DNA of 64,000 nt, taken from Candidatus Uhrbacteria bacterium (GTDB lineage Bacteria > Patescibacteriota > Patescibacteriia > UBA9934 > GWF2-40-263). Every line of letters starts with the position of its first letter. Within the stretch, counting starts at the first letter, position 1. Below, in pieces: positions 9,369-60,644 of the stretch. The translations under genes and the position numbers were made by a program. Location: assembly GCA_037131775.1 (NCBI GenBank), contig JBAXQK010000003.1:76439-140438 (forward strand). The letters are read 5' to 3'. The notes under the pieces are model-generated. The model was not told the origin of the DNA and ran no database searches. It was given only the letters and a program-made list of their open reading frames with translations.

Positions 9369-10643
9369 CTAATCGTTCCTCCGGTACACCTTCGCCCCAG
9401 ACGACCACAGCTTCCACGCCTCGCCGACGGGAAGGATCGAGACGAAGTACTGCAGGTCCGCGGCCTTGCGGATGAGATAGCCGAGGAGGCCCGTCAGATG
9501 GAACCAGCCGAAGTCGGCGATGGCGTACGTTCCCCCCATGGGGACGACGGTGACCCAGCGGTCGGGCGGGGTCCAGGACATCGGGAGCTTTCGCTCGAGG
9601 GTGCGCGCGATGTTTTCCGCGACGATGGCGGCCTCCTTCACCGCGGCCTGCGCGAGCGCCGGGACGCGCTTCTTCGTCTTCGGATGCGTGAAGGCGGCGC
9701 AGTCGCCGAGGGCATAAACGTTCTTCGTTCCCTCGACGAGGAAGTTCGGCGTCACCTTGACGTATCCGCGATCGTCCACCGGAAGGCCCCACGTCTTCAC
9801 GACGTCGAGCGACTTTACTCCCGCGGTCCACACGATCACGTCGGCCTCATGCCGGACCGTCGTCCCGTCCGCCCGTTCGAGCGTAACCGCGTTCGCCTCC
9901 AAGGACTTGAGCTTCGTGGCGGCAAGGACGCTGATGCCGAGCGCGTGGAGGCGTTCCTTGGCGCAGCGACGAACGGGCGCCGGGAACATCGAGAGGATGT
10001 CCGGGCCGGCCTCGACGAGCGAGATGTCGTAGTCCCGGCGCAGCAGCGTCTCCTCATCGATCATCCGGTGAAAGAAGTTCGCTGTCTCCGAGGCGAACTC
10101 GGTTCCCGACGCGCCGCCGCCCACGACCAGAATCGAAAGACGCTTTTCCTTCCCGTCCTTGTAAGATCGAATGAACTCGAACATTCGCTCGCGGATGGCG
10201 AACGCGTCCTTGAGCGTCTTCATGGGCAACGCGAACTTGTCCGCGCCGGCGATTCCGTACGTGGCGCTCTCGACTCCGACCGCGACCACGAGGTCGTCGT
10301 ACGGGATCGTTTCCCCGCTCGATAGCGCGACGTTCTGCTCGGCAGCGTCGACGGTCGCGACGGTCCCCTGGACGAACCGGATATTCTTTTTCTTGATGAT
10401 GTTCCGAACCGCGTCAATCTGGACGCACGCCCCGCTCTGCAGTTCGCCGACGCACGCGTCCGACGACAATTCCAGATCCCCGCTCGACACCTCGTAGAGC
10501 AGCGGCGTGTACAGGTGCTCGGGACGCGGGTCGACGAGCGTGATCTCGAACGCCTTAAGCCGCACCTTGCGCTTGGCAAGCTCGAGCGCCGTGCGCAGGC
10601 CGCCGAATCCGGCGCCGATTATTACGATTTTGTGAGAATCCAT
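9369..10643 (-). CDS. ndh: type II NADH dehydrogenase (NDH-2) / FAD-dependent pyridine nucleotide-disulfide oxidoreductase
   Basis: Two dinucleotide-binding motifs IVIIGAGFGG and ILVVGGGASGTEF. ATG at 10641-10643 (track start 10658 is TTG). Confidence 0.8.
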   Translation of the reverse strand: MDSHKIVIIGAGFGGLRTALELAKRKVRLKAFEITLVDPRPEHLYTPLLYEVSSGDLELSSDACVGELQSGACVQIDAVRNIIKKKNIRFVQGTVATVDAAEQNVALSSGETIPYDDLVVAVGVESATYGIAGADKFALPMKTLKDAFAIRERMFEFIRSYKDGKEKRLSILVVGGGASGTEFASETANFFHRMIDEETLLRRDYDISLVEAGPDILSMFPAPVRRCAKERLHALGISVLAATKLKSLEANAVTLERADGTTVRHEADVIVWTAGVKSLDVVKTWGLPVDDRGYVKVTPNFLVEGTKNVYALGDCAAFTHPKTKKRVPALAQAAVKEAAIVAENIARTLERKLPMSWTPPDRWVTVVPMGGTYAIADFGWFHLTGLLGYLIRKAADLQYFVSILPVGEAWKLWSSGAKVYRRND

Positions 10644-19383: not shown

Positions 19384-19425
19384 CGGAGAATAACCCGTTA
19401 CTTTGCCAGTCTCAGCAAAGATTTT

Positions 19426-19477
19426 AAAAAACCGCTCAACATACCTCGCAGCTGCGAGGTATGTTGAGCGGTTTTTT
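19426..19477. terminator. bidirectional terminator, perfect 20-bp palindrome flanked by A6/T6
   Basis: aaaaaa CCGCTCAACATACCTCGCAG|CTGCGAGGTATGTTGAGCGG tttttt. Confidence 0.85.
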
Positions 19478-19484
19478 ATTTCCA

Positions 19485-30959: not shown

Positions 30960-31610
30960 ATGATATTGTCACGCCAAGACATCCTCGCGCAGATCGCCTC
31001 GGGCGGAATCCGGTTCACGCCGGAGATCGACCAGTTTCAGCTGCAGCCGCACGCGATCGACTTGCGACTGGGATACAAGTTTTTGATCCCGCGCAACTGG
31101 ACGTTCGACGAGAAGGGCCGCCGCGCGATCAAGGTCTCGATCGACGACGCCGATGCCCATCCCGAGCAGTTCGACGAGGTCATCCTCAAGCCCGGTCAGT
31201 TCTTCGACCTTCTCCCGAACGAGTTCGTCATCGGCACCAGCCTCGAGCGCATCGAGCTCAACGCGCCGAACCTGATGGCGATCCTCTTTCCCAGGACGTC
31301 GACGAATCGCCGCGGCATCGACCTGTCGCTCTCGGGAATCATCGACGTGGGCTACAAGGGCAACCTCATCTTCCCCATGAAGAACGAGGCGGGCAACCAG
31401 GTCATCCGCGTGTATCCGGGCGAACGAGTGTGCCAGGTGGTATTCGAGGAACTCAAGACCCCGTTAACGTCCGAGGAGGCGAATCTCCACGGGATGTCGG
31501 CGGCGAAGTACTCGGAAAGCGACGGCGCGTACCGGCTCGACAAGGATGACGAGCGGACGCTGCTGGTGGAAGGGAAATTGGACGAAATGAAAAAGCGGTT
31601 CGGGGTCTAG
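30960..31610 (+). CDS. dcd: dCTP deaminase
   Basis: ...IQPHAIDLRLG...; dUTPase-fold Dcd family. Confidence 0.8.
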   Translation: MILSRQDILAQIASGGIRFTPEIDQFQLQPHAIDLRLGYKFLIPRNWTFDEKGRRAIKVSIDDADAHPEQFDEVILKPGQFFDLLPNEFVIGTSLERIELNAPNLMAILFPRTSTNRRGIDLSLSGIIDVGYKGNLIFPMKNEAGNQVIRVYPGERVCQVVFEELKTPLTSEEANLHGMSAAKYSESDGAYRLDKDDERTLLVEGKLDEMKKRFGV

Positions 31611-31628
31611 CCCGAACCGCTTTTTTTG
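31594..31628. terminator. bidirectional terminator between dcd and subtilase
   Basis: aaaa AGCGGTTCGGG gtctag CCCGAACCGCT ttttttt. The dcd stop is in the loop. Confidence 0.85.
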
Positions 31629-47404: not shown

Positions 47405-49300
47405 ATGATCGGAGAATCAAGAGGCAGCGCACGCAACGCGGAATGGAAGCCAAGGCCAACGCGCGCAAAGGTAACGAAATCACCGGACCGTGATTTTACC
47501 AAGGGACGCGAGGCGGGCGCCTTAAAGACGCGCATTGGTGACTCGAAGCTACAGCCGGAACAGGCGGGGATCGCCCGCAAGTATCTCGCTCTGATGGATA
47601 GCCTCGATGCCGCGCAAAAGACCGCCAACAACTTCAAGAAACCGAAGGATGAGCGCGACGCCGCGACGGCGGAGATCAAGCGAATTGCCGCGCTTGCCAT
47701 TAACCCCCGCCAGGATTTGATTGACGGAGGAATTGACGTAGTCGGCCTCAACCTCCAGAACAAACACAACCGAAAGGTCTTTGAAAAAAAACACGAGGGA
47801 ATTCTCAAGGCCGAGGAACCGAAGCTCGTTTCGAAGGCATCTGAGATCAAGCGGAGAGATCTCGTCCCCGGTTCCGCGGAGCAACGCGGCAACGCGGCAA
47901 TCATCGCGGAGTACAAGAAGCAAAGACTGGACGAACAAAAGCGGACCGAACAGCAGGCGACCGAGACCAAGAACTATCTTGCCGCGGTCGAGCGAACGAA
48001 CGATCTCCACGCCGGACTTTTGAAGATCCGACGCGAGCTTGCGCAAGCGAAGAATTCCGGATCGGAAGACGTCGTCGAGAAACTGACGCGCGATGAAGCC
48101 GACACGACGAAAGCATACGCGGCAGGACGCGAAAAGATTAAAATTGCCGAGCGGTCGCTCAAGGATGCCGGCATCGAGCCGAGCGACAAGCGGTTCGCGA
48201 CGCAGACGGCACGCGATCGTTTATACGCGGAAAAGCCAACGCTGAAGCCCACGATGGAAAGCCGACGTGAAGATCGCGCCAATGGGGCCGAAGCGCTCGA
48301 GATGGGCGAGGATCCAAGCGACGCGGCCGAGGACGTGATCGGCTTTCTCCCGGGACCCGATGACGCAAAGGACGGATCCGTAAGGCCTCTTATGCGCGTA
48401 AACCGAGGAGCGGACGGCCGAGTGATTCGCGGAGGAACTCCCGAGATGGGAAATAAGGATGCCCGACCGTTCGACGCATCCGAGGAAGCTCCGGACATGA
48501 TCGACCTGAACAGCCCGAAGCGAGCGGAGGAACAGAGGATGCGCGAGATTTCCGCGGAAACGAAAAAGGCGGCCGCGGAACAGGCGCGAGTGGAGGCGCT
48601 GAGCGAGGCGCAACGACTCGAGGAATCCATGCTTGGCAAGGACTTCGCGATGGCAAAAGCCGCTCCGGCGCAAAAGCCAGCCGAGAAGACCGGGTTCTTT
48701 TCCCGCATCGCCGGCTTCGACGTCGGAAGTGCCGCAAGAAGGCTTCTCCTGGGCCTTGGAATCGGTCTCGCGGCAGGAAAGGGCGTGGATACGGTCCGCA
48801 ACCACGATCAGTCCCCCGAAAGCGCCCCGACCCACCAGGCATACGACGCGGGAACGCGGGCTGACTACTCGATCCGCGCGGAAACGCCGGCAGCACCTCC
48901 CGCGGCTCAGGCCGTCGAGTCTGGTTCGGCGGACACCGCGCCCGCCGCAAACGTGGAAATCAGCCAGCCGTCGATCGAGGTTCCATCCATGGAAACGAAT
49001 AAGGCCGTCCGTGAATTCAGAAAGAGCGGAGACCCGCGAAATCTCGAGGACGCGTTAAAAAGACTTGAGATCTTCGAAGGAAGGGACGAATACTTGCGAG
49101 GACGGGCCGCGGAACAAAAGGCCGAGCTTCAGGCCCGCCTGGCCGATCTCGCAGCCATTCGTTCCGTCATGAGCTCCAAGAGTCCCGCCGTTGAGGCGTC
49201 AAAACGAATCGACATGGAAAAAAGGATTGCCAAGGCAAAGGCACGCAGCGAAGACATGATATCTTACCTGGAACTCATGCGAACCATTCGCAGCCAGTAA
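47405..49300 (+). CDS. large coiled-coil / low-complexity protein with one central TM segment (631 aa)
   Basis: K/E/A-rich. TM FFSRIAGFDVGSAARRLLLGLGIGLAAG. Lower GC than neighbours. Consensus promoter upstream. Confidence 0.55.
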   Translation: MIGESRGSARNAEWKPRPTRAKVTKSPDRDFTKGREAGALKTRIGDSKLQPEQAGIARKYLALMDSLDAAQKTANNFKKPKDERDAATAEIKRIAALAINPRQDLIDGGIDVVGLNLQNKHNRKVFEKKHEGILKAEEPKLVSKASEIKRRDLVPGSAEQRGNAAIIAEYKKQRLDEQKRTEQQATETKNYLAAVERTNDLHAGLLKIRRELAQAKNSGSEDVVEKLTRDEADTTKAYAAGREKIKIAERSLKDAGIEPSDKRFATQTARDRLYAEKPTLKPTMESRREDRANGAEALEMGEDPSDAAEDVIGFLPGPDDAKDGSVRPLMRVNRGADGRVIRGGTPEMGNKDARPFDASEEAPDMIDLNSPKRAEEQRMREISAETKKAAAEQARVEALSEAQRLEESMLGKDFAMAKAAPAQKPAEKTGFFSRIAGFDVGSAARRLLLGLGIGLAAGKGVDTVRNHDQSPESAPTHQAYDAGTRADYSIRAETPAAPPAAQAVESGSADTAPAANVEISQPSIEVPSMETNKAVREFRKSGDPRNLEDALKRLEIFEGRDEYLRGRAAEQKAELQARLADLAAIRSVMSSKSPAVEASKRIDMEKRIAKAKARSEDMISYLELMRTIRSQ

Positions 49301-49306
49301 GCCACC

Positions 49307-49337
49307 GAAAACGCCTCGCACTAGCGAGGCGTTTTTG
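49307..49337. terminator. bidirectional terminator between the 631-aa gene and thrS
   Basis: gaaaACGCCTCGC acta GCGAGGCGTtttt. Perfect palindrome; the thrS stop is inside. Confidence 0.85.
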
Positions 49338-51063
49338 CTGCGTTCAATGCCGTGGCAACGAGGTCGGCCTGCGGGACCATCAGGTCTTCCGTCGCTCCGA
49401 ACACGTTGATCTTGAAATCCCCTCCCTCGGCTTCCTTGGCACCGAAGACGATCGTCCACGGAACCTTCATCATGGCCGACGCGCGGATTTTCTTTCCGAC
49501 CTTCTCGTCGGACGCGTCGAGCTCCACGCGGAGTCCGGCGGCGGATAGCTTCTCCTTGAGCTCGGTCGCGGCCGGGACGAAGGCGTCCGAAACAGTCGCG
49601 ATGCGAATCTGGTACGGGGCGAGCCACATCGGGAACGCGCCGCCGAGGTGCTCGATGAGGACGGCCATGAAGCGCTCGATGGATCCCATGATCGCGCAGT
49701 GGACCATGACGATCTGTTCCTTCTCGCCCTGCTCGTTAACGCAGGTGAGACCGAAGTTGCGCGGCTGGTTGAAATCGAGCTGGATCGTGGCGACCTGGTG
49801 CGTTCGGCCGATGGAGTCCTTTGCCATGAAGTCGATCTTCGGGCCGTAGAACGCGGCCTCGCCCGGACCGTCGGCGTAGGCGCTTCCGACGTGCGACTCG
49901 ATGATGTCCCGAAGCTCGGCCTCCGATCGGTCCCAGTCTGCCGAATCTCCAAGGTACTTCTCCGGCATGGCGGGATCACGGCGCGACAGGCGAAGCGACA
50001 GCTCGTAGCCGAACGCGCCGTAGAACGTCGTGATGATGCCCCAGATCTTCTCCGCCTCCTCGCGGACCTGCGACAGACGGCAGAACACATGCGCGTCGTC
50101 CTGGGTAATCGAGAGCACGCGGGTGAGCCCTCCGAGCTCGCCCGACTGCTCGTCGCGGTACACCATAGTCGTCTCGGCGTAGCGGACGGGAAGGTCGCGG
50201 TACGAGCGCATCTCCGAGGCGTAGATCTGCGCGTGGTGCGGGCAGTTCATCGGCTTCATGGCGTAGGTGTGCTTCTCGCGCGTGACGATCTTGAATAGGT
50301 CGTCGGCATACTTGGCCCAGTGGCCGGACGTCTCATACAGGTCCTTCTTGGTGATGTGCGGGATGGTCACGCGCTCGTAGCCGTGCGCGCGACGAAGCGA
50401 CCAGACGAACCCGTCGAGCAGCATGCGGACGGTCGTGCCGCGCGGAGTCCAGAGCGGGAGTCCGGGACCGACCAGGTCGGAGAAGGTGAACAGCTTGAGC
50501 TCGGCGCCAAGCTTCCGGTGGTCGCGCTTCTTGGCCTCCTCGAGCATTGCGGAATGGGCGGCGAGCTCCGCGGCCGTGGCGAACGCAAGCCCGTAGATGC
50601 GCGTGAGCTGGTCCTTTTCCGAATCGCCGCGCCAGTACGCGCCCGCGATCTTTGACAGCTTAAACGACTCGGGGTCGACATTCGCGAGCGACTCCGCATG
50701 GCCGCCGCGGCACAGGTCGACGTACGATCCCGACCGGTACAGCGTCAGCGTCTGCCCTTCCGTCGAGAACTCGTTAATGAGCTCCGTCTTGTACTTGTTG
50801 TCCGCGAACGCCGCGCGTGCCTCGTCGGCCGAGACTTCCGAGCGGTCGAACGACGTGAAGGTCGGCAGCAGCTCGCGCATCTTTGCCTCGATCTTCGGCA
50901 GGTCCTCTTCCGAGACGGGCGTCGAGAACTTGAAATCGTAATAGAACCCGTCGTCGACGGCCGGGCCGATGGTGCGCTTGGAGTCCGGGTACAGCTCGAG
51001 GACTGCCGCGGCGAGCAGGTGGGCAAGCGAATGGCGGAGGTGGGAGAGCTCTTCGGAAGACAT
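49321..51063 (-). CDS. thrS: threonyl-tRNA synthetase (short form)
   Basis: HxxxH SAD motif HLRHSLAHLL; class II core; 580 aa from ATG 51061-51063. Confidence 0.9.
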   Translation of the reverse strand: MSSEELSHLRHSLAHLLAAAVLELYPDSKRTIGPAVDDGFYYDFKFSTPVSEEDLPKIEAKMRELLPTFTSFDRSEVSADEARAAFADNKYKTELINEFSTEGQTLTLYRSGSYVDLCRGGHAESLANVDPESFKLSKIAGAYWRGDSEKDQLTRIYGLAFATAAELAAHSAMLEEAKKRDHRKLGAELKLFTFSDLVGPGLPLWTPRGTTVRMLLDGFVWSLRRAHGYERVTIPHITKKDLYETSGHWAKYADDLFKIVTREKHTYAMKPMNCPHHAQIYASEMRSYRDLPVRYAETTMVYRDEQSGELGGLTRVLSITQDDAHVFCRLSQVREEAEKIWGIITTFYGAFGYELSLRLSRRDPAMPEKYLGDSADWDRSEAELRDIIESHVGSAYADGPGEAAFYGPKIDFMAKDSIGRTHQVATIQLDFNQPRNFGLTCVNEQGEKEQIVMVHCAIMGSIERFMAVLIEHLGGAFPMWLAPYQIRIATVSDAFVPAATELKEKLSAAGLRVELDASDEKVGKKIRASAMMKVPWTIVFGAKEAEGGDFKINVFGATEDLMVPQADLVATALNAAKTPR

Positions 51064-51102
51064 AGGGTTTGAGGACAAGGGTGACCGATAACCCTCGAAC
51101 TG

Positions 51103-51138
51103 TAACACAAATGAAAGAACGGCCACAAGCGGCCGTTC
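51103..51138 (-). terminator. terminator after 51139..52308, upstream of thrS
   Basis: Minus RNA GAACGGCC gcuugu GGCCGUUC, then UUUCAUUUGUGU. Confidence 0.7.
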
Positions 51139-52308
51139 CTACTGCGCAATCTCCACGTAAATGTGGTCTTTCAGCCTCGGAACACGCTTCATCCAGAACG
51201 GGGTAAACTCGACCGTCACGTCGGACGCGATCGTTTCCTTTACGAGCAAATCCTTGATTTCCTCCTGGCTCATTCCCGCGAACCGTCCCGGCTCAAGCGA
51301 CCGGCTGGTGGCCGAAGGGGCGACGATTCCGTCCATGTACACGTGGACGCTCGCGGTTCCGAGCTTCGCGTCCGCGACCTTGTCGACGGATGCCTGGAGC
51401 GCGTTGTCATTCGATCCGACGAAGTCCATTCCCGGAAGCAGCTGCTCGAACAATTTTTTCTTCGCGATGACTGCCAGCGCGGCGCGATCGTAGAACACCC
51501 CGGTTGCCTCTATCGACATCGTGAGGCTGAACCCGGACGCCTCGGCCCCGGCCTGCGTATCGCTCTTCTGTTCCGTGACCTCGAAGGAATAGGCCTCGCC
51601 GGAAAGGCCATCCTCGGCCTTCGCCTTCAGCGCCGCCTTCGCCTGTTCCTCCAGCGTGCCACGCAGCTCGAGCGCCGATCGGTCGATATCCTCCTGGGTC
51701 ACGATGGAAACCGTGCGCGTCCCGCCGACGAATGCGACGGCGTTGTCGGCGTAGATGGACTTTTGAAGCGACTCGGAAAGGCCCGGTATCGAAAACTTCG
51801 TCGGAGCGACGTTCCCCGTCGCGCCCGCGACGTCGGCGTGGATCGCTGCCTCGACCGTCCCGTTCGCCGGAACCGTCACGCCCTTGTCGAGCCGGAAGAG
51901 GATGCCGTCCGCGCTCAGGAACCGGGTCGTGGCAACGAGCGGCTGGGTGTGCGACGACGCGTTGTGGACGATGACCGTCCCGCCGGCCTTCTCGTCGATG
52001 ATCTTTCCCGGGTTGGCCGACGCGAACGGCGCGGTCTTCTGCACGGTCGCGGTCACGATGGATCCGCGCACCTCCGAGTCCTTGGTCGGCGTCTTCACCA
52101 CGTCCGCGATGAACTCGGTCTTCACCGTCGTCTTGATCGGCACCACATGAATCGTCGCCGAGACCGTCGAGACGTAGAGAACGGCTGCCAGCATCATGGC
52201 CACCGCAACGACAAAGCCGACCGCGATACGGCGGTATAGCTTCAGCGAAGGGGCGGCCGGAGCCGGAGCCTTCGCAGTGACCTTCGATTTTTTGACGGCT
52301 GGTGCCAT
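51139..52308 (-). CDS. membrane-anchored hypothetical protein (389 aa)
   Basis: N-terminal TM IAVGFVVAVAMMLAAVLYV, then a long soluble region. Confidence 0.5.
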   Translation of the reverse strand: MAPAVKKSKVTAKAPAPAAPSLKLYRRIAVGFVVAVAMMLAAVLYVSTVSATIHVVPIKTTVKTEFIADVVKTPTKDSEVRGSIVTATVQKTAPFASANPGKIIDEKAGGTVIVHNASSHTQPLVATTRFLSADGILFRLDKGVTVPANGTVEAAIHADVAGATGNVAPTKFSIPGLSESLQKSIYADNAVAFVGGTRTVSIVTQEDIDRSALELRGTLEEQAKAALKAKAEDGLSGEAYSFEVTEQKSDTQAGAEASGFSLTMSIEATGVFYDRAALAVIAKKKLFEQLLPGMDFVGSNDNALQASVDKVADAKLGTASVHVYMDGIVAPSATSRSLEPGRFAGMSQEEIKDLLVKETIASDVTVEFTPFWMKRVPRLKDHIYVEIAQ

Positions 52309-52358: not shown

Positions 52359-52607
52359 TCACGTTTCCTCAATAATGTCTGTAGCGAAGAGATACGGGGT
52401 ACGATAGACGGACGAAAGCACCGCCATGAACGCAAGGCCGTCCGCGACGGTCAACGCGGTTCCGAGGAGCGGATCGACGATCCCCGCGCTGAGATCCGCG
52501 ACCATGTCCGGGTCGCCCGACGGGACCGCGACGCCGTCGACGAGGTCGACGCGGGCGAGGCGGACGGACTGGCCGTTTTCGAGGGCAAATATGTTCACGT
52601 GTGGCAT
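52359..52607 (-). CDS. small hypothetical protein (82 aa)
   Basis: Strong GC3 bias. Confidence 0.4.
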   Translation of the reverse strand: MPHVNIFALENGQSVRLARVDLVDGVAVPSGDPDMVADLSAGIVDPLLGTALTVADGLAFMAVLSSVYRTPYLFATDIIEET

Positions 52608-52616
52608 AGGCTCTGG

Positions 52617-54284
52617 TTATAGCGGCCTTGTCACGTCCGGCCCGCTCGGTCTTGACCTCGGCGTCTGCGCCGACTTTGACGCAAGGTACGCGGCGAATTT
52701 CTCCCCGAAGTCCCTTCGAAATCTGGGCAGGTATTTGGGGTACTTCGCCCCCGGACCGTCCGCGACGAATCTCGCGACCATCGCGTCGATGCGCTTCCCG
52801 TACGCTTCCAGGTACGGACCCATGTTCTCCGGCAACAGGCCGACCATTCGCTCGAACGTCTTTCGCTCCGCCGAATCCCTCCACGCGACAACCCGCTCCT
52901 GCAACGACTCTGGAACCGTATCGCCCGACTCCGACATGAGCAGAAGCGGCACGGAGCTGAAGGGCGATTCGACGTCGGAGGAAAGGTCGGAGCCGTAGTC
53001 GATGGGGACGAGGCCGCGTGACGTCCTCATGATGTTGCGCGGCGCCAGGTCCGAGTTATTCAAGAGAACGCTCGCCACCGCCATCGGACCGATCTCTGGC
53101 CTGAGGCGGCCGCTCGGAAGTTGAAACCATTCGTCAATCCGACTGCAGTCTTTTCCGTCCAGCAGCTCCAACACCGTCACGTCGCCGTACGGCTCCAGCC
53201 GGCGCGACACGACGGCGGGCGCCTCCACGCCGAATCCGACCGCGTGCATGGACGCCGCCACCTCGCGGTACTTCCCGTTTCCCGGCGTGACGCCCTCGCG
53301 CGCAAACCGCTCGCTGAATGAGAACTTCACCACGGCCTGCCGCGTGTCGTCCCCGTCCTGAAACGTCACGATGACCGGCGAGGCGGCATGGTCTTCCGTG
53401 GAAATGACCGGCCTCGGGACCCCGACGATTTTGCCACGTCGAAAAATCTCCTCGGTGCGTCGACGGCGCTCGATGGATTCGCGGCGCTCCGCATGGGACG
53501 CGACGATCGCGTCGTACATGTCGACCTGGCACGCATAAAGCCTCTGGTCGCGCGCGTCGTCCTGCAGCGCTTCCCTCTCAAGCTCGCTTGGCAGGCGAAT
53601 CAGGTGCTCCGGCATCCCGACCCACGCGAGCATTACCGCGCGCCAGGTTTCCTTCGCCTCGCGGAACGAACGGTTCGCAATCTGGTTCACGAGCCGTCGC
53701 GCGTCTCCCCGCGCGCGGGGGGGAACGAGATCGGAGGAAAGGACGCGGGAGGATGTCCGGAGGGATTCGGGAACGTACGCCAGGAACGTCTCGAGGATTG
53801 GCGTCGGTTCCAAGTCCGCCGCGATATCGGCCCTCTGACGCAGCAATGCCTCCGTGACAAACCGCGGGTGACCTGCGCCCGCACGAAGGGTTTCCGCGGC
53901 CTCCTCGGGAGAAAAGTCACGGAGAAAGCTTGAAACGAGCCGCGTTTCGGTCAGCGTCAGATCAAGCTGCACTTCCGCGATGCGGATCGACCGCCACTCC
54001 GGGTTCGACAAATCGTTCGCTTCCAGAAGCTCCCTGGCCCGCGCCAGTCTCTCCTGCGTGTTCCCGCGCCTGCTCTTCGGGATCGAGTCGCTCCATTTCG
54101 CGAACCTCGCCTCAAATGCGTCCGTGAGCTCAAGAAGCGACCGCGGGGTCGTCCGTGCCTCGGCCGCGGCACGGACGTCAACGAGGCCACGCATGACGCG
54201 GTCCGAGAGCGGCAGGATGCGCGGCTGCCCGCGGTCGGTCATCTCGCGCGAAATCTCAGGGCTGATGGGATTTGGCTCTGCCAT
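52617..54284 (-). CDS. hypothetical protein with C-terminal atypical protein-kinase-like domain
   Basis: C-terminal region has AVVKF (beta3 Lys-like), NSDLAPRNIM (D-L-x-P-x-N catalytic loop) and LVPIDYGSD (DFG-like). N-terminal about 350 aa helical. ATG 54282-54284. Confidence 0.55.
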   Translation of the reverse strand: MAEPNPISPEISREMTDRGQPRILPLSDRVMRGLVDVRAAAEARTTPRSLLELTDAFEARFAKWSDSIPKSRRGNTQERLARARELLEANDLSNPEWRSIRIAEVQLDLTLTETRLVSSFLRDFSPEEAAETLRAGAGHPRFVTEALLRQRADIAADLEPTPILETFLAYVPESLRTSSRVLSSDLVPPRARGDARRLVNQIANRSFREAKETWRAVMLAWVGMPEHLIRLPSELEREALQDDARDQRLYACQVDMYDAIVASHAERRESIERRRRTEEIFRRGKIVGVPRPVISTEDHAASPVIVTFQDGDDTRQAVVKFSFSERFAREGVTPGNGKYREVAASMHAVGFGVEAPAVVSRRLEPYGDVTVLELLDGKDCSRIDEWFQLPSGRLRPEIGPMAVASVLLNNSDLAPRNIMRTSRGLVPIDYGSDLSSDVESPFSSVPLLLMSESGDTVPESLQERVVAWRDSAERKTFERMVGLLPENMGPYLEAYGKRIDAMVARFVADGPGAKYPKYLPRFRRDFGEKFAAYLASKSAQTPRSRPSGPDVTRPL

Positions 54285-54346
54285 ATTCCGGTCCAGTATA
54301 CGATGCCCGGGATCGCAGATCAAACAAAAAAGACCCTGAGCGAAGC

Positions 54347-54631
54347 TCAAGGCCGAGTCGAACGTGTCTTCGGAACCGTCGCGCACCAGGCGCCATAGGC
54401 CACCGCCACGGTTGGCTGGTACGTGTCGAGCACGCCGTCCAGGAACGCCGTTCCGTCGTGCTGGCTCAGGCCGCACCGTTCGCAGACGTCGAACCGGATC
54501 GTCTCGATCGCCTCGTCGGACCCCGTGATCAGAACGTTCTCGCCGGCAAGGAACGCCGACGCGACGGTAATCTCCTTTCCATCGTCGTCGACGCAGACGA
54601 CGTTCACGCGTCTCGGATCTCCTTCGCTCAT
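54347..54631 (-). CDS. small Cys-containing hypothetical protein (94 aa)
   Basis: SD AGGAGG 5 nt upstream of ATG 54629-54631. GC3-rich. Confidence 0.5.
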   Translation of the reverse strand: MSEGDPRRVNVVCVDDDGKEITVASAFLAGENVLITGSDEAIETIRFDVCERCGLSQHDGTAFLDGVLDTYQPTVAVAYGAWCATVPKTRSTRP

Positions 54632-54706
54632 GGCACCCTCCTGTTGTGGGTGGAGAACGAGTGTGGCAGAAAAGGAGTCCCGCGTCAAGACGGCCACGGG
54701 CAAATC

Positions 54707-54739
54707 AAACGATGTCAACACTCGGTGTTGACATCGTTT
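54707..54739. promoter_or_regulatory. perfect 15-bp inverted repeat AAACGATGTCAACAC-tcg-GTGTTGACATCGTTT
   Basis: Overlaps the stop of 54738..55412 and lies about 75 nt upstream of the 94-aa gene. Contains TTGACA on both strands. Confidence 0.6.
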
Positions 54740-55412
54740 ATCCCAGCGATACGAAGAATCCATCCCGGGCGCCTAGCGCGGGATAGCGGTCCGTCTCCGG
54801 GTCGGCGCCAATGCGCAGGCGCTCCGGGTTCGCGTTCCAGGCGGCGTAAAGGACGTTTCCTTCCTTGTCGCGGCTGCCGAGCAGCCACGAGGAACCGCCC
54901 GTCGATCGGTCGACGAGGTGCGCGCCGGTCGTCTCAAAATGGACGCGTTCCTCGACGAGAAACTCGGCGATCGTGAGCCCGACGCGGTTGGTCGTCTCGA
55001 ACGTCGCGGCGAGACCGGCGGCGCTCCGGCCGAGCGTGTTCCTTGCCATCGCGCGGTCCGGGTTCGTCAGCAAAAGGTACGACCGCCCGACGCGACGCGG
55101 ATCCGTCGTGACGATCCCGTCCGGCCAGCTTGCCGTGACGCGGGCCGAGCGGTCGACGGGAAACGCAGCGAGAAGCTCGGGGAGATGTCGCTCGATCCCG
55201 GCCGGGATCAGAAGGACGCGCGAATACCCTTCCCTGGCCTTGGCGCGGAGAACGTCCAATTGATCGCGCGACAGGTCGATGGTCGGCGGCAGTGTCGCGG
55301 CAAGGTCGGCGAGGCCGAGGCGATCGTAAAAATCGACGGCATCTCGACGCAGCGCCGAAAGGTCGACGGCGATTTCGACGGGTAGCAGACCTTCGGGATG
55401 GGAGCGCTTCAT
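54738..55412 (-). CDS. hypothetical protein (224 aa)
   Basis: GC3-rich. A 15-bp perfect palindrome lies immediately downstream. Confidence 0.5.
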   Translation of the reverse strand: MKRSHPEGLLPVEIAVDLSALRRDAVDFYDRLGLADLAATLPPTIDLSRDQLDVLRAKAREGYSRVLLIPAGIERHLPELLAAFPVDRSARVTASWPDGIVTTDPRRVGRSYLLLTNPDRAMARNTLGRSAAGLAATFETTNRVGLTIAEFLVEERVHFETTGAHLVDRSTGGSSWLLGSRDKEGNVLYAAWNANPERLRIGADPETDRYPALGARDGFFVSLG

Positions 55413-55422
55413 ACGATGACAA

Positions 55423-58400
55423 TTAGTCCGCGACGACGTTCTGCCTCCCCACGATCCCCGCGATCTCGTCGATCACCTGGCTCGTGGCGAGGATCGAGTA
55501 CTCGGTTTCGATCTTCCTGGTCTGTCCGCCCGACTCCACGAGCAGGCACACGCGGCGCGGGCCGGGGTTGGCACGGAGAATTCCGCGGAGGCGCTCGACC
55601 ATGTCGTGGTCGGGCCGTCCGCGGAGCGCGATGGAGACGGACGGTTGTTCCGCGGCCTTCGCCTTCGGATCCTCGGTCTTCTGAAACTTCGACCGCTGCT
55701 CCTCGTCGATCCACCCGCCCGACTTCAAAAGCTCGCCAAGCCCCGCGGCCTCGCTGTCCGAGACGAGCACGAGGCTGTTCGCGATGAGCGCGACCTCTTC
55801 CCCGCCCGGGCCGTCGACGTCGTCGTCGCGGCTCGACTCGCTCTTGCGCCGCGACACCTTCGCGGACACGACCATGATCGTGTCGGGCAGCAGCGATTCC
55901 TTGAACTGGGCGAACGTACGCGGGAACACCAGCAGTTCCGTCTTCCCCGTGAGGTCCTCGAATCCGACGAACGCCATCGCATCGCCCTTCTTCGTGACGA
56001 TCTCCTTCACCGTCGTGATGATCCCTCCCACGCGCACGAACTCGGCGTCCGGCTTCGTGATCGCGACCGCGACCGACAGGACGGTATCGCCGAGCTGCTT
56101 CGCCACGTCCTCGTACGGGTGCGCCGACACGAATAGGCCGAGCAGCTCCTTCTCCCACTGCAGCACGTCGCGCTTGGCCGCCGGCGGAACGACCCGAAGG
56201 GTAATCCCCGCGGTGGCGACGGACGGTGCCGCGTCGAACAGGCTCCCCTGGTTCGTCGTCAGCTGCCTCTGCGCGTCCTTGTTGAACAGCAAGATCCGGT
56301 CCATGTTCTCGAGCAGCTGGTTGCGGTCGCCGAACCGGTCGAGCGCGCCGGTTTTCACAAGCGCCTCGATGGACTTCTTATTGAACGCGCGATGGTGCAC
56401 GCGCCGCGCGAAGTCGGCGAGGTCGAGGAACGGCCCCTTCGCCTCGCGCTCGGCGATGATCGACTCGATTACCTCTTCCCCGAGGTTCTTGATGGCGATC
56501 AGCCCGAAGCGGATCGTCTTGTCATTGATGTACGTAAACGTCAGCCGCGACTCGTTGATGTCCGGCGACAGCACGTCGATTCCCATGCGCCGGCACTCCG
56601 TGACGGCCTCGGCGACCTTCTCGATGTCCGACGACTCCGCGGTCATGATCGACGTCATGTACTCCGCCGGATAGTTCGCCTTCATGTAGGCGGTGTCGTA
56701 CGCGATCATCCCATAGCTCGCGGCATGCGCCTTGTTGAACCCATAAGCCGCGAACGGCTCGATGAGCTTCCAGATGTCCTGCGCCTTCGTCATGGTCAGC
56801 CCGTGCTCGACGAAGCCGCTCAGGAGCTTTTCCTTCTGCTTCTGCATCTCCTCCGGGATCTTCTTTCCCATCGCCTTGCGCAGCTTGTCCGCGTCGAGCC
56901 AGGAGTAGCCGGCCAGGTGGATGGCGATGAGCATCACGTCGTCCTGGTACACGATGACGCCGTACGACTGGTCGAGGATATCCTTCATCCGTGGGTCCAT
57001 GAACTTCACGAGGCTCGGGTTGTGCTTGCGGCGGATGTACTCCGGGATCGACTCGATCGGGCCCGGGCGGTAGAGCGCGACCATGGCCATGATGTCCTCG
57101 ACGCGCTCGGGGCGCAGGTCCATCAGGTACTTGGTCATCCCGTCGCCGTTCAGCTGGAACGTTCCCATCGTCTTTCCGGCCGCGAGCAGCTCGAAGGTCT
57201 TCTTGTCGTCTACCGGGATCTTCTCGAGGATGATGTCCGCGTTCTTCGTCTGCTTCACGAGCTTGATCGCGTCTCCCAGGATCGACAGGTTGCGGATCCC
57301 GAGGAAATCCATCTTCACGAGACCGGCCGACTCGACGGCGTGCATCTCGTACTGCGTGATGGTCTTTCCCTCCCGGGTATCGATCTGCAGCGGGGTGAAG
57401 TCGGTGAGCGCGGTGGGCGAGATGACCACGCCGGCGGCATGGATCGAAACGTGGCGCGCGCACCCCTCGACCTGGCGGGCGAGGTCGATAAGACGGTGAA
57501 CCTCGGCGTTCACGTCATACAGCTTCTTCAGCTCCGGCGCCTCCTGGAGCGCGATCTCGAGCGTCATCGGGAACCCCTGGCTCCCCATCGGAACCGACTT
57601 CGAGATCTTGTCCACGAACTGGTAGTCGTACCCGAGCACGCGGCCCACGTCGCGCACGGACCCGCGCGCGGCCATCGTCCCGAACGTGCAGATCTGCGCC
57701 ACCTTGTCCGCGCCGTACTTCTCCGTGACGTACGCCATCATCTCGTCGCGGCGGTTGTCCGCGAAGTCGGCGTCCACGTCCGGCGCGCTCGGTCGCTCCG
57801 GGTTGAGAAAGCGCTCGAACGGCAATTTGTAAACGAGCGGGTTCACCGTCGAAATTCCAATCGAAAAACCAACGAGCGACCCTGCGGCCGATCCACGGGT
57901 CGTCGTGACGATTCCATTGCGCCGCGCCCACTCGATATAGTCCGAGACAATCAGAAAGTACGGGCAGAATCCTTTCTGCTCGATAATCGCCAGCTCGTAG
58001 TCGAGGCGCTTCGTCATCACCTCGGTGAGCGTCCCGCCGACCTTCTCGGGAAGCTCGGCGTAGGCGCGGGCCGTGAGCACGTCGAGGAACGTCTTTCCTT
58101 CCGGAATCTTGAAGTCCGGGAAGTTCCACTTGCCCAGCTCGAGCTCGACCGTGCAGCGGTCCGCGATCTTCCGCGTGTTCTCAATCGCCTCGGGAACGTC
58201 CTTGAACCGCTCGATCATGTACTCGCCCGACACGAGCGACGCGTCGAAGTCGTACTGCTGCTGGCGCTCGTACGCCTCGAGCGTGCGCTGGCCCTTGATA
58301 CAGTTGAGGACCTTCCACGCCTCGACGTCGCCCGGCTTGAGATAGAACGCGTTCTTCGTCGCGACGACCGGGACGCCCATCTCCTTCCCGAGCTCGATCA

Positions 58401-58974
58401 GCGTCGCGTTGATCGCCTCCTGCTCGGCGATCTCCGGGCGGTCGACGAGCTCGAGGAAGAAGTTCCCGTCGCCGAAGATCTCGACGTACTCGCGAATCAG
58501 CGTCTTGGCGCGTTCGCGGTCGTGCGAGTTGATCGCGCTCTCTATCTCCCCGGCGTGCCCTCCCGACAGCGCGATGATCCCCTTCCCGAGCGAGCGCAAA
58601 ACCTCCTTGTCGACGCGCGGCTTGTAGTAGAACCCCTCAAGAAACCCGATCGACGCGATCTTTATGAGATTTTGGTACCCCTCCCGCGTCTCCGCGAGCA
58701 GCACGATCCGATAATTCTTCGTGTCGATCTTCGCCCGCTTCTCGTTGCGCCCCTCGATCCCGAGGTACGCGTCCATCCCGAAGATCGGCTTCACCCCGGC
58801 ATCCTTCGCCTTCTGGTAAAACTCAATCATCCCGTACATCGACCCGTTGTCCGTGATCGCCACCGCGTCCATCCCGTGCTTCAGCACGTGCTTCAAAATC
58901 TCCTTGGGCTTTGGCAAAGCCTCAAGAAGCGAATAGTGGCTGTGGACATGCAGGTGGACGAAGGGACTGGGCAT
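55423..58974 (-). CDS. dnaE: DNA polymerase III alpha subunit
   Basis: PHP domain HLHVHSHYSLLEA...; 1183 aa. Confidence 0.95.
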   Translation of the reverse strand: MPSPFVHLHVHSHYSLLEALPKPKEILKHVLKHGMDAVAITDNGSMYGMIEFYQKAKDAGVKPIFGMDAYLGIEGRNEKRAKIDTKNYRIVLLAETREGYQNLIKIASIGFLEGFYYKPRVDKEVLRSLGKGIIALSGGHAGEIESAINSHDRERAKTLIREYVEIFGDGNFFLELVDRPEIAEQEAINATLIELGKEMGVPVVATKNAFYLKPGDVEAWKVLNCIKGQRTLEAYERQQQYDFDASLVSGEYMIERFKDVPEAIENTRKIADRCTVELELGKWNFPDFKIPEGKTFLDVLTARAYAELPEKVGGTLTEVMTKRLDYELAIIEQKGFCPYFLIVSDYIEWARRNGIVTTTRGSAAGSLVGFSIGISTVNPLVYKLPFERFLNPERPSAPDVDADFADNRRDEMMAYVTEKYGADKVAQICTFGTMAARGSVRDVGRVLGYDYQFVDKISKSVPMGSQGFPMTLEIALQEAPELKKLYDVNAEVHRLIDLARQVEGCARHVSIHAAGVVISPTALTDFTPLQIDTREGKTITQYEMHAVESAGLVKMDFLGIRNLSILGDAIKLVKQTKNADIILEKIPVDDKKTFELLAAGKTMGTFQLNGDGMTKYLMDLRPERVEDIMAMVALYRPGPIESIPEYIRRKHNPSLVKFMDPRMKDILDQSYGVIVYQDDVMLIAIHLAGYSWLDADKLRKAMGKKIPEEMQKQKEKLLSGFVEHGLTMTKAQDIWKLIEPFAAYGFNKAHAASYGMIAYDTAYMKANYPAEYMTSIMTAESSDIEKVAEAVTECRRMGIDVLSPDINESRLTFTYINDKTIRFGLIAIKNLGEEVIESIIAEREAKGPFLDLADFARRVHHRAFNKKSIEALVKTGALDRFGDRNQLLENMDRILLFNKDAQRQLTTNQGSLFDAAPSVATAGITLRVVPPAAKRDVLQWEKELLGLFVSAHPYEDVAKQLGDTVLSVAVAITKPDAEFVRVGGIITTVKEIVTKKGDAMAFVGFEDLTGKTELLVFPRTFAQFKESLLPDTIMVVSAKVSRRKSESSRDDDVDGPGGEEVALIANSLVLVSDSEAAGLGELLKSGGWIDEEQRSKFQKTEDPKAKAAEQPSVSIALRGRPDHDMVERLRGILRANPGPRRVCLLVESGGQTRKIETEYSILATSQVIDEIAGIVGRQNVVAD

Positions 58975-59014: not shown

Positions 59015-59206
59015 ATGGTCAAAACCCCACAGGAAATTGTCGCGGAAACCGTTGGAATCACGAAGGAATTCGAGCGAAAGCTGGCCGAGCTTGAGGCGCG
59101 GAGGAAGGAAATCGTCGCGTCGGCCATTCGGAGCGCGGAACAAGCGAAGATGTCGGCAGTTCGGCAATTCATTCACAGGCTGTTCGGCAATACAAAAACC
59201 GTATGA
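59015..59206 (+). CDS. small hypothetical protein (63 aa)
   Basis: Leaderless-type: TATACT 59001-59006 then ATG. ATGA overlap with the next ORF. Confidence 0.4.
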   Translation: MVKTPQEIVAETVGITKEFERKLAELEARRKEIVASAIRSAEQAKMSAVRQFIHRLFGNTKTV

Positions 59207-59694
59207 GCGCACAAAGCAACAACATAACGAACGCCCTTGAAAAACCGCCGTCGGAACCGGTGCCGGAAGGCGCGGCTCCGGAGAATCCCAAGGATCTCAA
59301 GGAGGGCGAGTCGGCCGGTAAGGCCGAGCAGGCGACCATTGACGATCCGAAGTCCCCTGACGATCTGGAGACGTACTTCAACCGCGTCGCCACCGAAAAA
59401 GGGGAGGCCGTCGCGGCGCAAAAGGTGCTCGAGCAAGCCATAAAGATGGCCGAGGTGAAGGGCGATCGCGCCATGCATCTTCTCCAAAACTCCGGGGAAA
59501 CGATCAACGGAGCGCTCAGCCGCATCGGATACGAGCTTTCTGCCGGCGCCGATGCCCGAGCATCCTTCAAGCAAATTCAAGAACAGATGGATCTTTTGCG
59601 CGCCGAGGCTCGCGAACGACTTAACGCGCTTGCCGTCGAAGCCGCCAACAATAACGACGCGTTTGCCAAGGAGGACCAGGCCAAAGCCGCATAA
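59203..59694 (+). CDS. hypothetical protein (163 aa)
   Basis: Co-oriented, overlaps the previous ORF by 4 nt. Confidence 0.45.
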   Translation: MSAQSNNITNALEKPPSEPVPEGAAPENPKDLKEGESAGKAEQATIDDPKSPDDLETYFNRVATEKGEAVAAQKVLEQAIKMAEVKGDRAMHLLQNSGETINGALSRIGYELSAGADARASFKQIQEQMDLLRAEARERLNALAVEAANNNDAFAKEDQAKAA

Positions 59695-59705: not shown

Positions 59706-60644
59706 ATGCCCACAGATCCCCGCATCGCAGAACTCCCCGGATTCGTCCTCCTTCGGGACAAGCTTCCCCGCCTCCACGACGAGATCGACCGCCTTGTGGC
59801 GTCGAGCGTGTTCGGCGTGCGCCCAAGCGGCCCGGCGCTCGACCAGATGGCCGGGTTCATCGAGTTGGCCGAGCTTGGCGCGTTCGTCCAGGCGGTCGAC
59901 CTATTCTATGAGAAGCACCCGTGGCCGAGGACGACGGTCATTTCCCTGCTGCAGAATCCCCGGCTGTCGCGCAAGGAGCTGCTTGATGGCGACCGATATT
60001 CGATGGTCTACCGCAACGCCGTGCAGCAGCTCGACGAGATCCTGCAGTACAAGCACCTGTGGGCGGCGCACGGGTCCGCCTCCGACCTGATGGCGACCAT
60101 CGTAAGCCAGCCCGCGTTTTCGCGGCTCGACGGGTCAACCGTCCACGGCCTCGTCTTCGCCCTCAAGAACCAGGCCGACCAGGAGTCGCTCGCCGAGGCC
60201 GAGTTCGCCCTCCTGCTTGCCATCGACTGGACCCGCAACGCCTCCCCGGCCATCACGCTCGCCGACCTGGTCGCCCAACGCATGGTCGAGCCGGCCGTCG
60301 CGGTCGCGCTTCTCCAAAAGATCGTCGAGACGACCCGCTACCCGTTTTTTCAAATAGACCTTCTTGCCCACGTCCTCGAGTCCGTCCCGGAAAACACGTT
60401 CCGCGGCTACCTCCTCGGCCCGAAGACGTCGAACGTCCCGTCGCCGTCGCTCGACAAGCTGCTCCTCCATCTCGCCCAAACCAACCCGCACGCCTTCGCG
60501 AACCTGTTCCTGCGACACCGCTCGACGTTCAAAAAGAAATTCCAGCCGACCGGCATGTTCTCGAGCGAGAAGGAGATCTATCGAATCTGCTGGGGAAAGA
60601 TCGGGCTCTGGGACAAGATCATGGCGACGTTTTTTCCCGGGTAA
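59706..60644 (+). CDS. hypothetical protein (312 aa)
   Basis: GC3-rich. Confidence 0.5.
   Translation: MPTDPRIAELPGFVLLRDKLPRLHDEIDRLVASSVFGVRPSGPALDQMAGFIELAELGAFVQAVDLFYEKHPWPRTTVISLLQNPRLSRKELLDGDRYSMVYRNAVQQLDEILQYKHLWAAHGSASDLMATIVSQPAFSRLDGSTVHGLVFALKNQADQESLAEAEFALLLAIDWTRNASPAITLADLVAQRMVEPAVAVALLQKIVETTRYPFFQIDLLAHVLESVPENTFRGYLLGPKTSNVPSPSLDKLLLHLAQTNPHAFANLFLRHRSTFKKKFQPTGMFSSEKEIYRICWGKIGLWDKIMATFFPG

Follow-up and report, generated by a model that had tools for sequence, protein, structure and literature searches.

A lineage-restricted module of an atypical kinase-like protein and two small acidic partners between dnaE and thrS in Uhrbacteria

What is an atypical kinase-like protein doing among the housekeeping genes of Candidatus Uhrbacteria, and which of the genes around it belong with it? 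The question arises from a 64,000-nucleotide (nt) stretch of contig JBAXQK010000003.1, referred to here as the window, in which four open reading frames (ORFs) encoding proteins of 224, 94, 555, and 82 amino acids (aa) follow one another on the minus strand beside dnaE, in a neighborhood that also includes thrS, pheST, miaAB, and gatB. A sequence-only reading of the locus had described these ORFs as co-oriented with short gaps, and all four were found at the positions and lengths it gave, with intergenic distances of 106, 62, and 9 nt. It had also read the 555-aa protein as kinase-like and implied that the four genes form a single unit under a palindromic operator. Its kinase call was right; its grouping of all four genes and its reading of the palindrome as an operator were not. 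What is conserved, within one lineage, is a module consisting of the 94-aa gene (small A), a terminator plus promoter, the 555-aa gene (kinase K, the same sequence as WCO25_02490 from a metagenome-assembled Candidatus Uhrbacteria genome in the Patescibacteria), and the 82-aa gene (small B). The unit of study is corrected accordingly to A-K-B, without the 224-aa gene and the palindrome.

Structure prediction agreed with the earlier division of the 555-aa protein into a helical N-terminal domain and a kinase-like C-terminal domain. An AlphaFold2 (AF2) model of K built on a 20-sequence alignment of the family (A2) reached a predicted local distance difference test score (pLDDT) of 88.1 and a predicted template modeling score of 0.86, superseding a run on 3 sequences in which the catalytic region had a pLDDT below 50. 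In the model, helices spanning residues 25 to 283 are followed by a beta-rich N-lobe and then a helical C-lobe, after which the protein ends. The N-lobe contains strands at 285 to 292, 304 to 310, and 313 to 321, the last of which ends with K320, then a helix at 337 to 351 carrying E341, and further strands at 358 to 373. In the C-lobe, D412 and N417 follow a helix at 398 to 408, and D429 follows a beta-hairpin. Foldseek likewise recovered a kinase fold for this region.

The three motifs singled out from the sequence, AVVKF (residues 317 to 321), NSDLAPRNIM (410 to 419), and LVPIDYG (425 to 431), are all present in the translation and correspond to the beta3 lysine, the catalytic loop, and the DFG equivalent, so their description as catalytic signatures was borne out. 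Across the A2 alignment, K320, G331, R340, N417, and D429 are invariant, and R410, D412, G413, and R416 are at least 90% conserved, giving a family consensus of RxDGAPRN, 11 further residues, and IDFGSD. Judged from the alignment, K retains the ATP-binding lysine (K320), the catalytic-loop residues D412 and N417, and the metal-binding DFG-type aspartate (D429), and model and alignment together lend good support to a kinase fold whose catalytic set is complete. A basic residue four positions after the catalytic aspartate (R416, in DxAPRN) recalls both tyrosine kinases (HRDLAARN) and HipA (DGHAKN), and its presence does not settle the specificity of K.

Of the known kinases, the catalytic domains of phosphoinositide 3-kinases (PI3K) and phosphatidylinositol 4-kinases (PI4K) appear, by both model and profile comparison, to be the closest relatives of the K catalytic domain, at a considerable distance. 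Foldseek searches of the Protein Data Bank (PDB) returned Vps34 (E value of 1.8e-4) and PI3Kgamma (1.9e-4) at the top, with probabilities of 0.98 to 1.0, followed by lanthipeptide-synthetase kinase domains (ThurKC and CurKC), PRPK, Rio2, PI4K2B, receptor tyrosine kinases, and CtkA at probabilities of about 1.0; these other kinase families lie within one order of magnitude of the PI3Ks in E value. The alignments to Vps34 and p110gamma span 519 to 596 columns at a root mean square deviation (RMSD) of 18 to 20 Å, and profiles of the helical domain matched only generic helical proteins. When a profile of the K C-terminal domain (A6) was compared with PDB sequences, 12 of 13 matches were to PI4KB, PI4KA, or PI3Kalpha (best E value, 0.086), and the alignment to PI4KB was in register, with DGAPRN opposite DRHNGN and IDFG opposite IDFG. 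The catalytic lysine, D-x4-N, and DFG aspartate stand at canonical PI3K/PI4K spacing, with 17 residues from D412 to D429. The Pfam family PI3_PI4_kinase (PF00454; gathering score, 27.1 bits) matched two relatives, P0008 at 24.8 bits (E value of 2.5e-5) and P0020 at 13.2 bits, and did not match K of the window. The DRH triad is replaced by DGA or DLA, and the activation segment after DFG in K is short and acidic. Three distant paralogs (P0024, P0025, and P0027) carry DAGAPN...IDNGLS.

The kinase superfamily is known, but no description of the K family, of its N-terminal helical signature (LRxGxxHPR, with L133, G136, and P140), or of its two small partners turned up in the profile libraries and the literature that were searched. 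Single-sequence searches of the window proteins against Pfam, NCBIfam, PADLOC, PHROGs, and (by phmmer) PDB gave nothing usable, with no protein above any threshold in the first four, in agreement with the earlier statement that none could be assigned to a named family. HMMER, run exhaustively over 1.84 billion representative proteins, recovered only 25 clusters in the K family, 21 of them at an E value below 1e-10. The clusters that were looked up contain 1 to 6 sequences each, under the names "hypothetical protein" or "Patescibacteria group bacterium" only, and every named member belongs to Uhrbacteria or other Patescibacteria. A word-indexed homolog search with the 20-sequence profile returned only 3 proteins, the same as those already known, and a scan of viral contigs found no K relatives. 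Genome and metagenome scans yielded mostly duplicate loci, the new ones being L010, L011, and a scaffold labeled "Deltaproteobacteria" RIFOXYA12_FULL_61_11 (L012 5626-6855, MGSU01000337.1; also L016). This last occurrence was rejected as a chimeric scaffold, one end of which is the Uhrbacteria kinase and small B sequence of L002 joined to unrelated sequence, and this join has created the artifactual 403-aa protein P0005. The family is very rare and confined to reduced-genome, probably symbiotic Patescibacteria.

Gene order in twelve independent places defined the partners of K. In each of the 11 independent loci whose sequence extends past K, a homolog of small B begins 0 to 39 nt after K or overlaps it (L001 to L006, L008, L009, L010, and L020, plus L019, in which a B-like ORF comes 3 nt after the distant paralog P0024). 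Upstream of K, a homolog of small A is found in L001 (as a C-terminal fragment), in L004 to L010, and probably in L020; among independent loci with upstream sequence, it is missing from one lineage only, L002/L011. The order dnaE-A-K-B-(tiny)-389aa-thrS, in which "tiny" denotes a helical gene of 51 to 63 aa that follows B in five loci, occupies the same slot across lineages whose DnaE proteins are only 63% identical. Because L006/L007 (beside a trigger factor gene and, farther downstream, dnaA) and L008 (flanked by clpB and LigT) have quite different surroundings and still keep A-K-B, the three genes are conserved as a unit. In L010, which is another Uhrbacteria genome, K is 96% identical and the order is dnaE-A-K-B-389aa, with nothing between dnaE and small A. 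The earlier view of the kinase as accompanied by small partners therefore holds for the 94-aa and 82-aa genes and fails for the 224-aa gene, which is absent from L010 and the other loci.

No integrase, transposase, or tRNA gene was found near the module, no tRNA gene in the 64-kb window, and no Rfam family in the region, so the association with mobile elements that the earlier reading had thought worth checking did not materialize. Integrase, ParE, and RepA genes upstream in L002 were discarded as module context, since a run of N marking a scaffold gap separates them from it. In that same lineage, from the Uhrbacteria RIFOXY assemblies, a −1 frameshift breaks the K gene into two ORFs, 178 and 409 aa long, with a 22-nt overlap (L002 8870-10614; L011 5555-7299). 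The split is common to independent assemblies, with B intact and A missing, and therefore represents either real decay or a real split gene.

Both small proteins are strongly acidic (B has a net charge of about −8), and they have in common a (T/S)PxDGxAFL motif. Small A contains 4 Cys residues, and GGAGG stands 7 nt before its ATG, consistent with the good ribosome-binding site read from the sequence; the L010 ortholog confirms this start. Profile alignment of A with B by hhalign gave an E value of 1.4e-4 and a probability of 53%, and A is probably a distant paralog of B. B is conserved over its full length in the manner of a folded domain (alignment A7), with no invariant Ser, Thr, or Cys and no variable core, and A is likewise folded-domain-like without invariant Ser, Thr, or Cys. 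Neither protein matched Pfam or PDB, or any DNA-binding family. A relationship of A or B to HipA, HipS, or K was considered and dropped, as no similarity to the HipA N-domain, to HipS, or to any part of K was detected.

The spacing of the genes suggested one operon, and the sequence between A and K does not. An intrinsic-terminator-like hairpin and T-run follow small A, and the T-run overlaps the −35 element of a promoter-like site (TTGATC-17-TATACT) whose −10 element ends 10 nt before the K start codon. The A-K terminator is conserved at the DNA level in the window, L010, and L001, though K of L001 is only 45% identical, and the 90-nt A-K spacer aligns among the three with 83% mean column identity (window 54275-54360 versus L001 100-196). 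The spacer DNA is thus far better conserved than the proteins on either side, which points to strong constraint on an element combining terminator and putative leaderless promoter. Equivalents of the hairpin and T-run occur in L004, L005, L008, and L009, and a −10 box (TATACT, TATAAT, TAAAAT, or TACACT) precedes the ATG-GC of K by 9 to 11 nt in the window, L010, L001, L005, L008, L009, and L004; the layout in L005 would put the K start codon 84 nt farther upstream than it was called. Because a conserved terminator and promoter separate the 94-aa gene from K, the module is not one operon. We infer two predicted transcription units, [A] and [K-B(-tiny)], the second of them leaderless or nearly so. 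The candidate promoter of small A (TTGACG-17-CACACT, or CACAAT in L010) is weak, being conserved only between close relatives; it sits inside a remnant of the dnaE terminator, with a hairpin at 54677-54691. In L008, TTAGCACTC-N9-GAGTGCTAA lies at 9537-9563 between the divergent clpB and small A genes; we take this sequence to be a perfect match to the consensus of the controlling inverted repeat of chaperone expression (CIRCE), the HrcA operator, and it is presumably the heat-shock operator of clpB.

Comparison of the window with L010 and L009 showed that the module changes much faster than the genes with which it shares its slot. Against L010, the ratio of nonsynonymous to synonymous substitution rates (dN/dS) was 0.06 for dnaE, 0.10 for the 389-aa gene, 0.20 for K, 0.38 for A, and 0.56 for B. 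Against L009, identity was 63% for DnaE, 53% for ThrRS, and 43% for the 389-aa protein, yet only 22% for K and 35% for B. By its dN/dS, K is under purifying selection. The synteny of the module looks vertically inherited. Synonymous rates (dS) against L010 were 0.10 to 0.13 in A, K, and B, lower than the 0.25 to 0.29 of dnaE and the 389-aa gene; recent recombination or different codon constraints are possible causes.

Our preferred reading, to which we give somewhat better than an even chance as a package, is that A-K-B is a lineage-specific regulatory kinase complex. K would be an active ATP-dependent phosphotransferase, as its predicted fold and conserved residues suggest. K and B would be translated in a coupled manner from a single leaderless or near-leaderless transcript, and they are predicted to form a stoichiometric complex in which acidic B would serve as a regulatory or inhibitory subunit of Arg-rich K. 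A would be a second, separately controlled partner, produced from its own upstream transcript ending in the terminator that overlaps the K promoter. The whole would be a fast-evolving module inherited vertically in the dnaE...thrS neighborhood, and its role would most likely be lineage-specific regulation rather than that of a mobile addiction or defense cassette.

Several observations weigh against this package. Family member P0023 has Asn in place of D412, the paralogy of A and B rests on a 19-column motif, and the similarity to PI3K/PI4K lies below every curated threshold. Against PI3Ks the global TM-score is only 0.19 to 0.26, too low to establish the helical domain of K as a homolog of the one in PI3K. 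The loss of A together with the frameshift in K in L002/L011 indicates that the module is dispensable or decaying there, which would also fit a toxin-antitoxin-like element, and acidic small partners beside a basic enzyme, combined with fast evolution, are typical of conflict systems as well.

The leading alternative, which we regard as unlikely, is a kinase toxin-antitoxin or conflict module of the HipBA or HipBST kind. K would arrest growth, its target being, for example, an aminoacyl-tRNA synthetase or some other translation factor; B would be an antitoxin that binds K directly, and A a second antitoxin or regulator. K has the atypical Ser/Thr-kinase fold of HipA, HipT, and CtkA, its (R)xDGAPRN loop resembles TDGHAKN of HipA, and CtkA, a HipA-like kinase and a moderate structural match, gave the best target-normalized TM-score among compact matches (0.42). 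Both partners are small and acidic, with genes in tight linkage to that of K; K evolves fast, with elevated dN/dS for A and B, and the L002/L011 lineage, with K split, A lost, and B intact, looks like a toxin decaying first. Tripartite kinase toxin-antitoxin systems exist in the form of HipBST (PMC10627512, PMC6581861). Set against this, hhalign aligned K in register with Escherichia coli HipA over the catalytic loop only and without significance (E value of 0.063; probability of 0.9%), the HipA-family Pfam models (HipA_C, HipA_N, and Couple_hipA) matched none of 20 K members at an E value of 0.1 or below, NCBIfam gave no such match, and PADLOC-DB had none for five proteins at an E value of 1 or below. 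The roughly 260-residue helical N terminus of K does not correspond to the HipA N-subdomains, and B has no similarity to those, to HipS, or to any part of K. Profile searches with A and B disclosed no helix-turn-helix or other DNA-binding partner of the HipB type, and no conserved operator was found in seven loci; gene order is the reverse of that in HipA-type systems, with the enzyme first and the partner second. The position of the module is fixed across lineages, unlike the patchy distribution of mobile toxin-antitoxin systems, and relatives are lacking in the viral contigs scanned. The vertical-looking synteny and the lack of a DNA-binding partner argue, though not decisively, against a classical mobile HipA-type toxin-antitoxin module.

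It is improbable, in our estimate, that K is instead a lipid kinase of the PI3K/PI4K type whose substrates are phosphatidylinositol-like lipids, either the cell's own or those of a host to which K may be delivered as an effector, with A and B as chaperone-like acidic partners. The best fold and sequence matches are to phosphoinositide kinases, and K resembles PF00454 enzymes such as Vps34, PI3Kgamma, PI4KB, and type II PI4K in its bilobal kinase fold, in D-x4-N followed 17 residues on by I-D-F/Y-G, and in having a helical domain before the kinase domain, the order of the PI3K/PI4K core. The family consensus is IDFG, and the IDNG of the distant paralogs is the form found in type II PI4K. Patescibacteria, or candidate phyla radiation bacteria, are thought to be largely symbiotic, and bacterial phosphoinositide-kinase effectors are known in Legionella (LepB and MavQ) and Francisella (OpiA). 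Unlike the PF00454 enzymes, K is bacterial, scores below the gathering threshold, has DGAPRN rather than DRHxxN, and has no C2, Ras-binding, or other accessory domain; it has obligate small partners and occurs in few Patescibacteria only. Its activation loop, short and acidic, has no basic segment of the phosphoinositide-kinase type, it scores low against PI3Ks in global TM-score, its N terminus shows no evident signal peptide or secretion motif, and its neighbors have no link to lipid metabolism or secretion. The stronger form of the same idea, that the K family is a true bacterial homolog of the eukaryotic PI3K/PI4K helical-plus-catalytic core, phosphorylating phosphoinositides or other lipids, whether the cell's own scavenged lipids or those of a host membrane, with A and B as dedicated chaperones or regulators, is equally doubtful; if true, it would make the family a prokaryotic relation of a signaling enzyme commonly considered eukaryotic.

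Far less plausible is modification of a ribosomally synthesized and posttranslationally modified peptide, with K working like the lyase-kinase part of class III/IV lanthipeptide synthetases and A and/or B as long-leader precursors. Foldseek does match the ThurKC and CurKC kinase domains, small genes flank K, A contains Cys, and an all-helical domain precedes the kinase in class III/IV lanthipeptide synthetases, but the ThurKC match covers about 250 to 280 columns, the kinase domain alone, no cyclase domain, transporter, or protease is found in or beside K, and B is folded-domain-like without a variable core.

The four-gene operon (224-94-555-82) under a palindrome operator is just as hard to credit, despite co-orientation, short gaps, and a palindrome with TTGACA on both arms between the first and second genes. 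The palindrome is real and as described, a perfect inverted repeat that carries TTGACA on both strands, is stable as RNA (−27.3 kcal/mol; z = −4.3), and is expected by chance about 1e-3 times or fewer in 64 kb for a perfect 15-bp hairpin. DNA alignment with L010 placed it inside an indel of about 734 bp that is specific to the window and begins inside the last dnaE codons. An imperfect duplication of these codons bounds the indel, which carries, besides the 224-aa gene and the palindrome, a re-created 3' end of dnaE. Neither the gene nor the palindrome occurs in L010, where K is 96% identical, or in any other locus (12 loci for the palindrome), and for this reason both are placed outside the module, as what the alignments indicate is a strain-specific insertion. 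Among 5.8 billion proteins, a word-indexed search gave the 224-aa protein a single homolog, P0029, which is 41% identical and sits in an unrelated context; family profiles, phages, and plasmids gave no match.

The palindrome itself is most simply read not as an operator but as a putative terminator hairpin belonging to the inserted 224-aa gene, because it overlaps the TAA stop of that gene, begins with AAA and ends with TTT, and is absent elsewhere. Two other perfect hairpins in the window have the same AAA and TTT ends and look like bidirectional intrinsic terminators. In a promoter scan, neither TTGACA was accompanied by a suitably spaced −10 box, and seven other loci have no conserved operator-like palindrome upstream of the module. 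The possibility of a repeated element or conserved operator was set aside: the 11-mer core of the palindrome occurs nowhere else in the window.

Two further comparisons place K among known proteins. Uncharacterized phage PI3K/PI4K-like kinase domains, some of them in large multidomain virion proteins, have the same fold and gave the best compact superpositions (Foldseek against viral models; RMSD of about 6 Å over about 250 columns), and differ in their contexts, which are Nudix, ADP-ribosyltransferase, and head-morphogenesis fusions without A or B partners. Rio2, Bud32/PRPK, and class III lanthipeptide synthetase kinases resemble K in generic fold (Foldseek E value of about 1e-3), and PRPK has a comparable small obligate partner, TPRKB; K, unlike these, has no sequence similarity to them, its partners are unrelated, and there is no winged helix-turn-helix, Kae1, lyase, or cyclase context.

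Free-standing bacterial proteins with PI3K/PI4K-like kinase domains are uncommon and have been studied mostly as pathogen effectors or HipA-type toxins. If K is active, K and B would be a new kinase-regulator pair in organisms whose lineage-specific biology is mostly uncharted. If the helical-plus-kinase architecture is truly homologous to the PI3K/PI4K core, the family would also bear on the origin of a eukaryotic signaling enzyme. Coordinates of all features are collected in the table.

Table. Features of the A-K-B locus and of related elements in the 64-kb window (window coordinates)
Feature	Position	Strand	Basis or remark
dnaE	55423-58974	minus	
Accessory ORF, 224 aa	54738-55412	minus	
Small A, 94 aa	54347-54631	minus	ATG at 54631, stop end 54347
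Kinase K, 555 aa	52617-54284	minus	
K helical N-domain, residues ~25-283	53436-54212	minus	AF2
K protein-kinase-like / PI3K-PI4K-like catalytic domain, residues ~285-540	52665-53432	minus	AF2, Foldseek
K codon K320 (predicted catalytic)	53325-53327	minus	
K codon D412 (predicted catalytic)	53049-53051	minus	
K codon N417 (predicted catalytic)	53034-53036	minus	
K codon D429 (predicted catalytic)	52998-53000	minus	
Small B, 82 aa	52359-52607	minus	
389-aa membrane protein	51139-52308	minus	weak Baseplate_J match
thrS	49321-51126	minus	
Intrinsic-terminator-like hairpin and T-run after small A	54322-54354	minus	sequence scan
K promoter-like site, TTGATC-17-TATACT	54295-54323	minus	sequence scan
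Candidate small A promoter, TTGACG-17-CACACT (CACAAT in L010)	54660-54688	minus	read from sequence
Window-specific indel, ~734 bp versus L010	54707-55440	minus	DNA alignment with L010
Palindrome, perfect 15+15 inverted repeat, 3-nt loop	54707-54739		AAACGATGTCAACAC-CGA-GTGTTGACATCGTTT
Perfect hairpin, 54-nt palindrome, overlapping 32-nt arms	19425-19478		A-run/T-run flanks
Perfect 15+15-nt hairpin	31590-31625		A-run/T-run flanks
63-aa helical ORF, homolog of the tiny gene	59015-59206	plus	hhalign versus A8: probability 90.6%, E value 1.3e-6

The homolog of the tiny gene in the window is displaced to the far side of dnaE and lies on the opposite strand. It is followed by a 163-aa acidic ORF (59203-59694, plus strand) and a 312-aa helical ORF (59706-60644, plus strand) with a weak Vac14/HEAT-like Pfam match (E value of 0.006). 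These two ORFs upstream of dnaE were considered as detached pieces of K and proved unrelated to it.

On the other side of the module, the 389-aa protein has an N-terminal membrane helix and two weak matches, to Baseplate_J (E value of 0.0011) and to a PHROG baseplate-wedge family (E value of 1.9e-6). It is syntenic with the module and thrS in most loci and 43 to 64% identical across them, and its gene seems to be a conserved cellular one, not part of a prophage. Immediately downstream of thrS, the opposite strand encodes a 631-aa protein (47405-49300, plus strand) that is highly charged and rich in Ala, Glu, Lys, and Arg, with no Pfam match and a predicted membrane segment.

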